Source of the DNA: Eledone cirrhosa
Taxonomy: Eukaryota
Direction of reading: 5' to 3'
Length of the DNA: 64,000 nt
NCBI GenBank assembly: GCA_964016885.1
Contig: OZ024748.1
Span: forward strand, 19,034,001-19,098,000
A program made the translations under genes and the position numbers. The notes beneath the pieces were generated by a model. That model saw nothing but the letters and a program-made list of their open reading frames with translations, was not told the origin of the DNA and ran no database searches. Below are positions 28,052 through 28,475 of this stretch, piece by piece (the stretch's first letter is position 1; each line of letters opens with the position of its first letter).

Positions 28052-28211
28052 TAGAATTGGAGCTCTGAAATAGCAATATATATATGGATGTATATATAAT
28101 GTATTTTGCAATACACTTTATGCTTAATTAAAAGCATTTTGAAGACCGCATGCTATTGTTTTAGAGTAGTGACAAATTCACTTACTTTAATCTCAGCAAA
28201 CAGAGGAGATA

Positions 28212-28256
28212 AGCCGACAAGACCTTGTTTCGCATTTATTGATGCTTATCAAGGCT
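28212..28256 (-). ncRNA. Type I hammerhead with U3-A8 covariant core
   Basis: Minus strand: AGCC-TTGATAA-GCAT-caataa-ATGC-GAA-ACAAG-gt-CTTGT-C-GGCT; stem I extends further (ATCTCGGCAGAT/GTTTGCTGAGAT). Confidence 0.7.
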
Positions 28257-28437
28257 AACTACTCCCTCCTATCTGCCGAGATCACTGACGTTATATTCTT
28301 ATAGAATTCTAGTAAATAATCAGGAACTGATTATACAGAGCGGTTGTTGGTCAGGCAGAAATTAAAAATCGGCTACTCTAAGTATTGAGTTCTTTGGTGC
28401 GTTATGGTCCACCTGGTTCCTTACCACATTTCCTTCG

Positions 28438-28475
<38 letters not shown>

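Follow-up and report, generated by a model that had tools for sequence, protein, structure and literature searches.

Features of the locus

The locus described here lies in a 64,000-nt stretch of the Eledone cirrhosa genome (GCA_964016885.1, contig OZ024748.1, positions 19,034,001 to 19,098,000 of the forward strand), which we refer to as the window and number from its first letter. Between two (TA)n tracts stand a unit of a 318-bp repeat, whose RNA reads from the minus strand and carries a hammerhead motif, and the tail of F1, a Penelope-like element (PLE) whose RNA reads from the plus strand, so that the two parts meet head to head. The features are as follows, with published work cited, here and below, from the portions of its text that were available.

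27995 to 28049, no strand: (TA)n tract forming the left side of the target site, read from the sequence
28050 to 28369, minus (RNA sense): arm of the likely retrozyme, one full 318-nt unit plus 2 nt, starting at the long (tailed) start site beside the TA tract
28050 to 28075, minus: the retrozyme's own 26-nt tail, the stretch between its two start sites (tail defined as in the available text of PMC11167929)
28186 to 28284, minus: predicted type I hammerhead with an extended stem I (fold prediction; common family variants preserve the pairing)
28216 to 28231, minus: GAAA (28231-28228), followed by stem III and by the GUC site, whose C17 is 28216
28232 to 28245, minus: stem-loop II, 4 bp, GCAU/AUGC, with an A-U/U-A swap at one pair between subfamilies
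28246 to 28252, minus: catalytic core UUGAUAA, with U3 at 28252 and A8 at 28247
28370 to 28372, plus: CGG at the join, either untemplated or equivalent to the bases with which F1's own inverted arm ends in F1-internal joins
28373 to 28438, plus (RNA sense): last 66 nt of the approximately 79-nt F1 tail, the 3' end of a putative Hydra-like PLE, and a long (tailed) end
28439 to 28471, no strand: (TA)n tract forming the right side of the target site, read from the sequence

A preliminary description of this DNA had reported a ribozyme, beginning at 28170, joined to the F1 tail. The tail does indeed lie on the plus strand, at 28373 to 28438, but the unit begins at 28050, ends at 28369 and is separated from the tail by the three nucleotides CGG. 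Just left of the insert, a TA-flanked stretch of about 60 nt occurs twice (27538 to 27598 and 27937 to 27993).

A hammerhead motif on the minus strand

The minus-strand motif shows the features that define membership of type I, namely three helices round the core, an open helix I and a NUH site, together with a Watson-Crick 3-8 pair in the form of U3-A8. Stem III has four Watson-Crick pairs and a 4-nt loop, in a region that is a 12-nt palindrome in the majority of the family and carries one G-U variant in the window copy, and stem I (AGCC/GGCU) is lengthened into a 17-bp helix that pairs 28284-28268 with 28204-28188. Because helix III is palindromic in most copies, a double hammerhead (dimer) would be possible. 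Cleavage is predicted between 28216 and 28215.

The UUGAUAA core, short stems and extended stem I that had been noted at first sight are confirmed by folding, with a z score of -5.93 and none of 200 shuffles equally stable. This is the sole motif in the window in which all three stems have at least 4 bp, and the same search returned one match in 2 of 40 dinucleotide shuffles of the window. Against the Rfam model Hammerhead_HH9, which represents one C3-G8 subfamily, the motif scored 22.8 bits (E 0.0022; gathering score 52), and a whole-window Rfam search gave no hammerhead among the best 150 of 482 matches, all of them microsatellite-driven. The active fold lies 6.0 kcal/mol above the minimum-energy fold in the window copy (family median 7.5, n = 33), and the minimum-energy fold pairs U3-U4-G5 into helix III, so that self-cleavage is not assured. 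The hammerhead itself is real and of type I, and its RNA is predicted to cut itself.

The 318-bp repeat family

Units of the family, 318 nt long with a GC content of 0.336 (33.6%) and an internal TA microsatellite, join head to tail, 28369 to 28052, in arms of up to about five units; the window locus has a single one. The unit is putatively non-coding, and the loci examined showed neither a constant ORF partner beside it nor an autonomous PLE whose terminal repeat matches it. Searches with exact-flank patterns, which take in only copies with intact flanks, recovered about 870 hammerhead motifs of the family (873) from the 3.0-Gb genome. U3-A8 was present in 858 of the 873 and C3-G8 in none; of the other 15, 10 deviated at position 3, each of them retaining A8, and 5 retained U3 but deviated at position 8. 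These counts rule out a core decayed from CUGAUGA, the outcome against which the preliminary description had proposed a family alignment, and U3-A8 is thus a fixed trait of the family. Across 34 aligned copies, 98.0% of 1116 pair cells held standard pairs; eight pairs varied on one side alone with pairing retained, and one was compensatory, the A-U/U-A swap of stem II, which is found in 15 copies and represents a single subfamily event. The copies are mutually related, and with that qualification the preserved pairing points to selection on the minus-strand RNA. Median private divergence is 1.5%, and the family is a young one of dispersed, recent copies.

Judged by sequence criteria, the unit fits a non-LTR retrozyme, being a short, low-GC tandem unit with one type I hammerhead in each copy (the published range is about 170-400 nt with GC under 45%; PMC7229834; 10.64898/2026.07.22.740005). 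By its anatomy, with tandem and inverted inserts, a tail at one end and (TA)n targets, it also appears to be a non-autonomous PLE derivative. We take it to be a likely retrozyme, for whose insertion into TA repeats a Penelope-like reverse transcriptase would be borrowed, and call it the retrozyme below. In the available text of the same two sources, metazoan non-LTR retrozymes likewise consist of non-coding, low-GC tandem units some 300 nt long, each holding a single type I hammerhead, occur as hundreds of dispersed monomers and multimers, and coexist with PLEs. The family described here differs from them in its U3-A8 core, in a helix III of 4 bp rather than 1-2 bp, and in the 17-bp extension of stem I. 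It further shows inverted two-armed inserts with two fixed ends in (TA)n, which those portions of the two sources do not describe for retrozymes.

The U3-A8 pair has precedent: natural hammerheads carry it (PMC3088659), as do about 1,300 PLE motifs of Schistosoma mansoni, and Cercyon of that species has a U3-A8 variant with the same 3-8 covariation as the 318-bp unit (PMC4209133); the available text of PMC6155905 and PMC3884650 holds nothing on U3-A8. PLE hammerheads are, however, minimal, without helix III, and form part of the terminal repeats of coding elements, in contrast to the three-helix, putatively non-coding unit, and dual hammerhead motifs 100-700 bp apart on opposite strands have been noted in PLEs (PMC4209133).

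Other repeats in the window

A 595-bp tandem unit (34663 to 35731, minus strand) also has a U3-A8 UUGAUAA core, with a long stem II and a palindromic stem III (core and stem II read by eye). Alignment of the two units gave only microsatellite-like matches and short words, and the early statements that they share no similarity, and that U3-A8 recurs in separate families, both hold. Two families of minimal C3-G8 hammerheads occur as well, one at 11086 to 11345, 13640 to 14046, 31632 to 31858 and 45371 to 45602, of which the 13640 to 14046 copy has the inverted two-arm and tail anatomy in (TA)n, and a second, in inverted arrangement, at 40100 to 40482 and 1480 to 1658. A TA-flanked repeat of 500-610 bp, 95-97% identical between copies, lies at 26296 to 26800, 30808 to 31416 and 50701 to 51300, and at one locus elsewhere (L209) its end is fused to a retrozyme arm. 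There are, in addition, two abundant SINE-like families (5670 to 5864 and about ten other places; 6405 to 6607, 9893 to 10109, 33657 to 33871 and 40540 to 40747), which we presume to resemble cephalopod SINEs; a SINE-like copy is inserted inside a retrozyme arm at L082.

Insertion anatomy and the long/short end rule

Of the 168 complete inserts in the 250 sequences surveyed, 101 were inverted and had two arms, 65 had a single orientation and 2 were odd. The sample was non-random (best matches, first places on one contig, and loci chosen for one orientation), and among the 65 are duplicates as well as two-armed inserts that were wrongly split. Arms begin beside (TA)n at two fixed sites, one at 28076 (short) and one in the unit junction region (long), while their far ends fall anywhere, mostly with a few bases of microhomology; they pass through the cleavage site, and their ends do not pile up there. 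Outer ends were intact in 78 of the 101 two-armed inserts, and 76 of these paired a long with a short end, 2 were short+short and none was long+long. F1 palindromes in the window are likewise two-armed truncated insertions, with 56 long+short and neither long+long nor short+short among them (a further 31 segments were typed at one end only).

At diagnostic sites, opposite arms of an insert mismatched in 64 of 1249 cells (5.1%) and tandem units in 42 of 1044 (4.0%), against 37.3% between loci. Since arms and units thus share subfamily variants, each insertion derives from one template or source; at L023 the arms disagree at 4 of 5 diagnostic positions. From arms that hold up to five units we infer copying from a circle, although a homogeneous tandem transcript fits equally. 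In L1 twin priming, two target-primed cDNAs from opposite DNA ends are joined by microhomology into an inverted insertion. Here, in contrast, there is no poly(A), and the two arms begin at fixed sites inside a tandem or circular template, close to a single point of it.

In vitro, a PLE protein has been found to nick both strands and to extend them from two start sites, which mark the limits of the tail (PMC11167929). The retrozyme insertion pattern matches PLE insertions as described in the available text of PMC8557442 and PMC11167929, sharing partial tandems, an inverted 5'-truncated copy, a tail at one end, (TA)n targets and the two tail-defining start sites, and the tails of F1 (about 79 nt) and of the retrozyme (26 nt) compare with 30-40 nt for the PLE tails described there. 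A transcription start or template end at 28369, considered because a TATA-like run lies 25-32 nt upstream and the window arm ends there, was not supported, with 12 of 162 arm ends in the 16-nt bin against a mean of 8.1 and no extra base after 28369. A surplus of ends at 28202-28203 is probably due to alignments being trimmed where the query carries a private variant.

F1, the Penelope-like element behind the tail

The F1 tail pattern has 30,375 matches in the genome. Long F1 copies consist of an ORF, a 3' region of about 1.2 kb and then the tail, all in the same sense; a sense ORF was present upstream of the 3' region in 7 of 20 long copies, one of the seven (L147) being the query locus. The ORF contains reverse transcriptase motifs, a CxCX5C linker, a YIG motif and a GIY-YIG-like end, along with CxxC and CxH motifs, and it shares the linker, CxxC and CxH with the Hydra clade (PMC8557442, available text), as F1 also shares the (TA)n targets. 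GIY-YIG is annotated on 31% of one look-alike cluster; three pieces of the ORF had no match in Pfam, and one piece had none in the PDB. We regard F1 as a probable Hydra-like PLE, a clade assignment made from motifs and not from a tree. The tail is F1's own start-site signature and not a module of the 318-bp ribozyme: because it belongs to a different PLE and has the opposite RNA orientation, it would not come after the ribozyme in RNA read from the ribozyme's strand.

The F1 3' region immediately before the tail (L148-L166; window 4398 to 4584 is its 3' half) carries a hammerhead-like motif in the sense direction, made up of a long stem II, a 5-bp stem III with a palindromic loop, and a GUC site. 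Its core is CUGAGAA in most of 21 copies, to be read either as a C3-A8 mismatch or as a core without N7, and U3-A8 occurs in 2 of the 21. At window 34025 to 34246 two F1 inserts stand tail to tail round one TA tract and form a long hairpin, whose resemblance to a plant microRNA fell below that model's gathering score and is an artefact.

The join and other cross-family fusions

The exact join has one match in the 3.0-Gb genome, and the other 39 best matches do not span it. In terms of the end rule it is long+long, with both ends tailed, and microhomology is absent at the junction. CGG precedes this position of the tail at five other loci, four of which are F1-internal joins; as proof of a deletion the triplet is weak, a chance 3-nt insertion being about as likely.

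We typed eleven cross-family fusions of the retrozyme by hand. Six are long+short (L065, L076, L089, L091, L190, L208) and five are not (L199, L207, L240, L248 and the window join), the typing of L091 and L199 being tentative; about 20 more were untypeable or set aside, and the second insert of L028, set aside as ambiguous, would make the count 7 of 12. Compared with 76 of 78 among the inserts, the fusions give a Fisher p of 0.0012 (computed on 6 of 10, before L199), and the split of 6 in 11 is also compatible with a mixture that includes single two-RNA events. Stubs of inner arms are kept in 4 of the 11 (L089, L199, L208, L240), as deletion between two-armed neighbours predicts. L248 is a second long+long fusion, of the 318-bp unit with two units of an unrelated tandem retrozyme, and the second insert of L028 is joined to an F1-like tail at another breakpoint, with an inner-arm stub. 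Overlapping sequences of one locus excepted, no exact fusion junction was found at two loci among 50 arms joined to other DNA. An F1 end lies just across the TA run from 6 of 213 outer ends and some repeat from 106 of 213, so that substrate for fusion between neighbours is common. Strict long+short pairing, PLE twin priming and cross-family head-to-head fusions were not found in the literature searched, a body that left most subscription papers outside its coverage.

At two further loci (L077, L218) a retrozyme arm runs straight into antisense PLE coding sequence, with the polarity expected from an RNA-to-RNA template jump or from inner-arm loss. L094, L133 and L248 contain a further tandem family that resembles retrozymes and has two fixed ends and a C3-G8 hammerhead.

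Origin of the join

Our preferred reading, to which we give a probability of about 0.6, is that 28050 to 28369 is an arm of a U3-A8 retrozyme and that its join to F1 is what is left of two neighbouring insertions whose inner parts have been lost. Two separate insertions are preferred because the window join is long+long, a combination unseen in intact inserts of either family, and because fusions obey the end rule in only 6 of 11 cases; for two events, as opposed to one event on two RNAs, we would put the figure at roughly 0.65. The 318-nt unit would be transcribed, would cleave itself as a monomer, or as a dimer via the palindromic helix III, and would circularise. PLE protein would then cut both strands of a TA tract and, on one and the same RNA, extend the two 3' ends, one of them from the long start and the other from the short start. 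The extension would run through as many as five units, and the two cDNAs would join by microhomology. With a retrozyme insert and an F1 insert landing in the same TA tract in this manner, a deletion, or end resection during the second insertion, may have fused the two, at the cost of the retrozyme short arm, the intervening TA and nearly all of the F1 short arm. Neither an empty nor an intermediate allele was seen, and the sequence of these events is thus not observed.

It is possible, though we think it unlikely, that the join arose instead in one insertion from two RNAs, a PLE complex having extended the left end on retrozyme RNA and the right end on F1 RNA before the cDNAs were joined head to head (two-template twin priming). 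This would predict the observed polarity, each part reading as cDNA primed from its own TA flank, but a deletion between neighbours yields the same polarity. The PLE protein that extends both strands in vitro is a predicted dimer (available text of PMC11167929), F1 RNA would come from a very abundant element, and clean fusions to sense PLE 3' ends recur, with L065, L076, L091 and L190 being long+short; set against these are the inner-arm stubs of four fusions and the count of long+long ends, which is 0 of 78 for intact retrozyme inserts and 0 of 56 for F1. The discordant arms of L023 would suit two templates, yet opposite arms nearly always share their variants. We thus retain two insertions and the loss of what lay between them as the better account of the join.

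A further alternative concerns the RNA and is independent of how the junction arose. The hammerhead might be a conserved RNA structure for recognition or protein-assisted processing that cleaves itself inefficiently, the templates being uncleaved tandem transcripts and not circles. The more stable alternative fold and the passage of cDNA arms across the cleavage site would agree with this, as would two reports, that cleavage of an anole PLE needs protein and is dispensable for insertion in vitro (PMC11167929) and that 8 of 9 Xenopus retrozyme dimers were without cleavage (10.64898/2026.07.22.740005), both as given in the available text. We nevertheless find it improbable, given that core and GUC site are intact, as are stems II and III, that the 3-8 pair is compensated, that U3-A8 hammerheads are reported to be active in vitro (PMC3088659, available text), and that the palindromic helix III of most copies permits a double hammerhead.

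Very little speaks for an assembly error that collapsed two nearby repeats. At 28372 public contigs show depth 0, and the 19 public reads extending to that position have a different letter there, but since the libraries are reduced-representation and from other samples and the contigs are filtered, the missing read support is uninformative; comparable fusions are, moreover, common in the assembly, and the three junction bases match a real F1 join. Least tenable of all is the proposal of the preliminary description that tails are interchangeable modules swapped among ribozyme elements, and with it the idea that the hybrid moves as a unit, for although cross-family fusions are not rare and L028 offers a second retrozyme join to an F1-like tail at another breakpoint, the exact join is a unique adjacency in the genome (an outcome that the description had itself counted against the idea), the F1 tail is the 3' end of another PLE and antisense to the ribozyme RNA, no junction repeats at two loci among the 50 arms, and the tail of every family, 26 nt long in the retrozyme, is defined by that family's own two start sites.

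Implications

The core variant has already been published, and what is new here is one further retrozyme family. Its natural U3-A8 hammerhead, with a full set of three helices and in 858 copies, is a handy substrate for studies of the 3-8 pair. A more speculative idea, which we hold to be rather doubtful, is that the two ends of a single DNA break can receive different RNAs from a Penelope-like enzyme, which would so weld a retrozyme cDNA to the cDNA of an unrelated PLE. If this were true, chimeras joined head to head would prove directly, from the genome, that PLE proteins mobilise retrozymes in trans, and the geometry of an insertion complex with two subunits could be read from the long/short end rule. 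The end rule offers a means of distinguishing single insertions from later fusions, and for the in vitro system already established with PLE it makes a sharp prediction. That inserts of two unrelated families combine, with few exceptions, a tailed and an untailed end bears on the question of how PLEs transpose.
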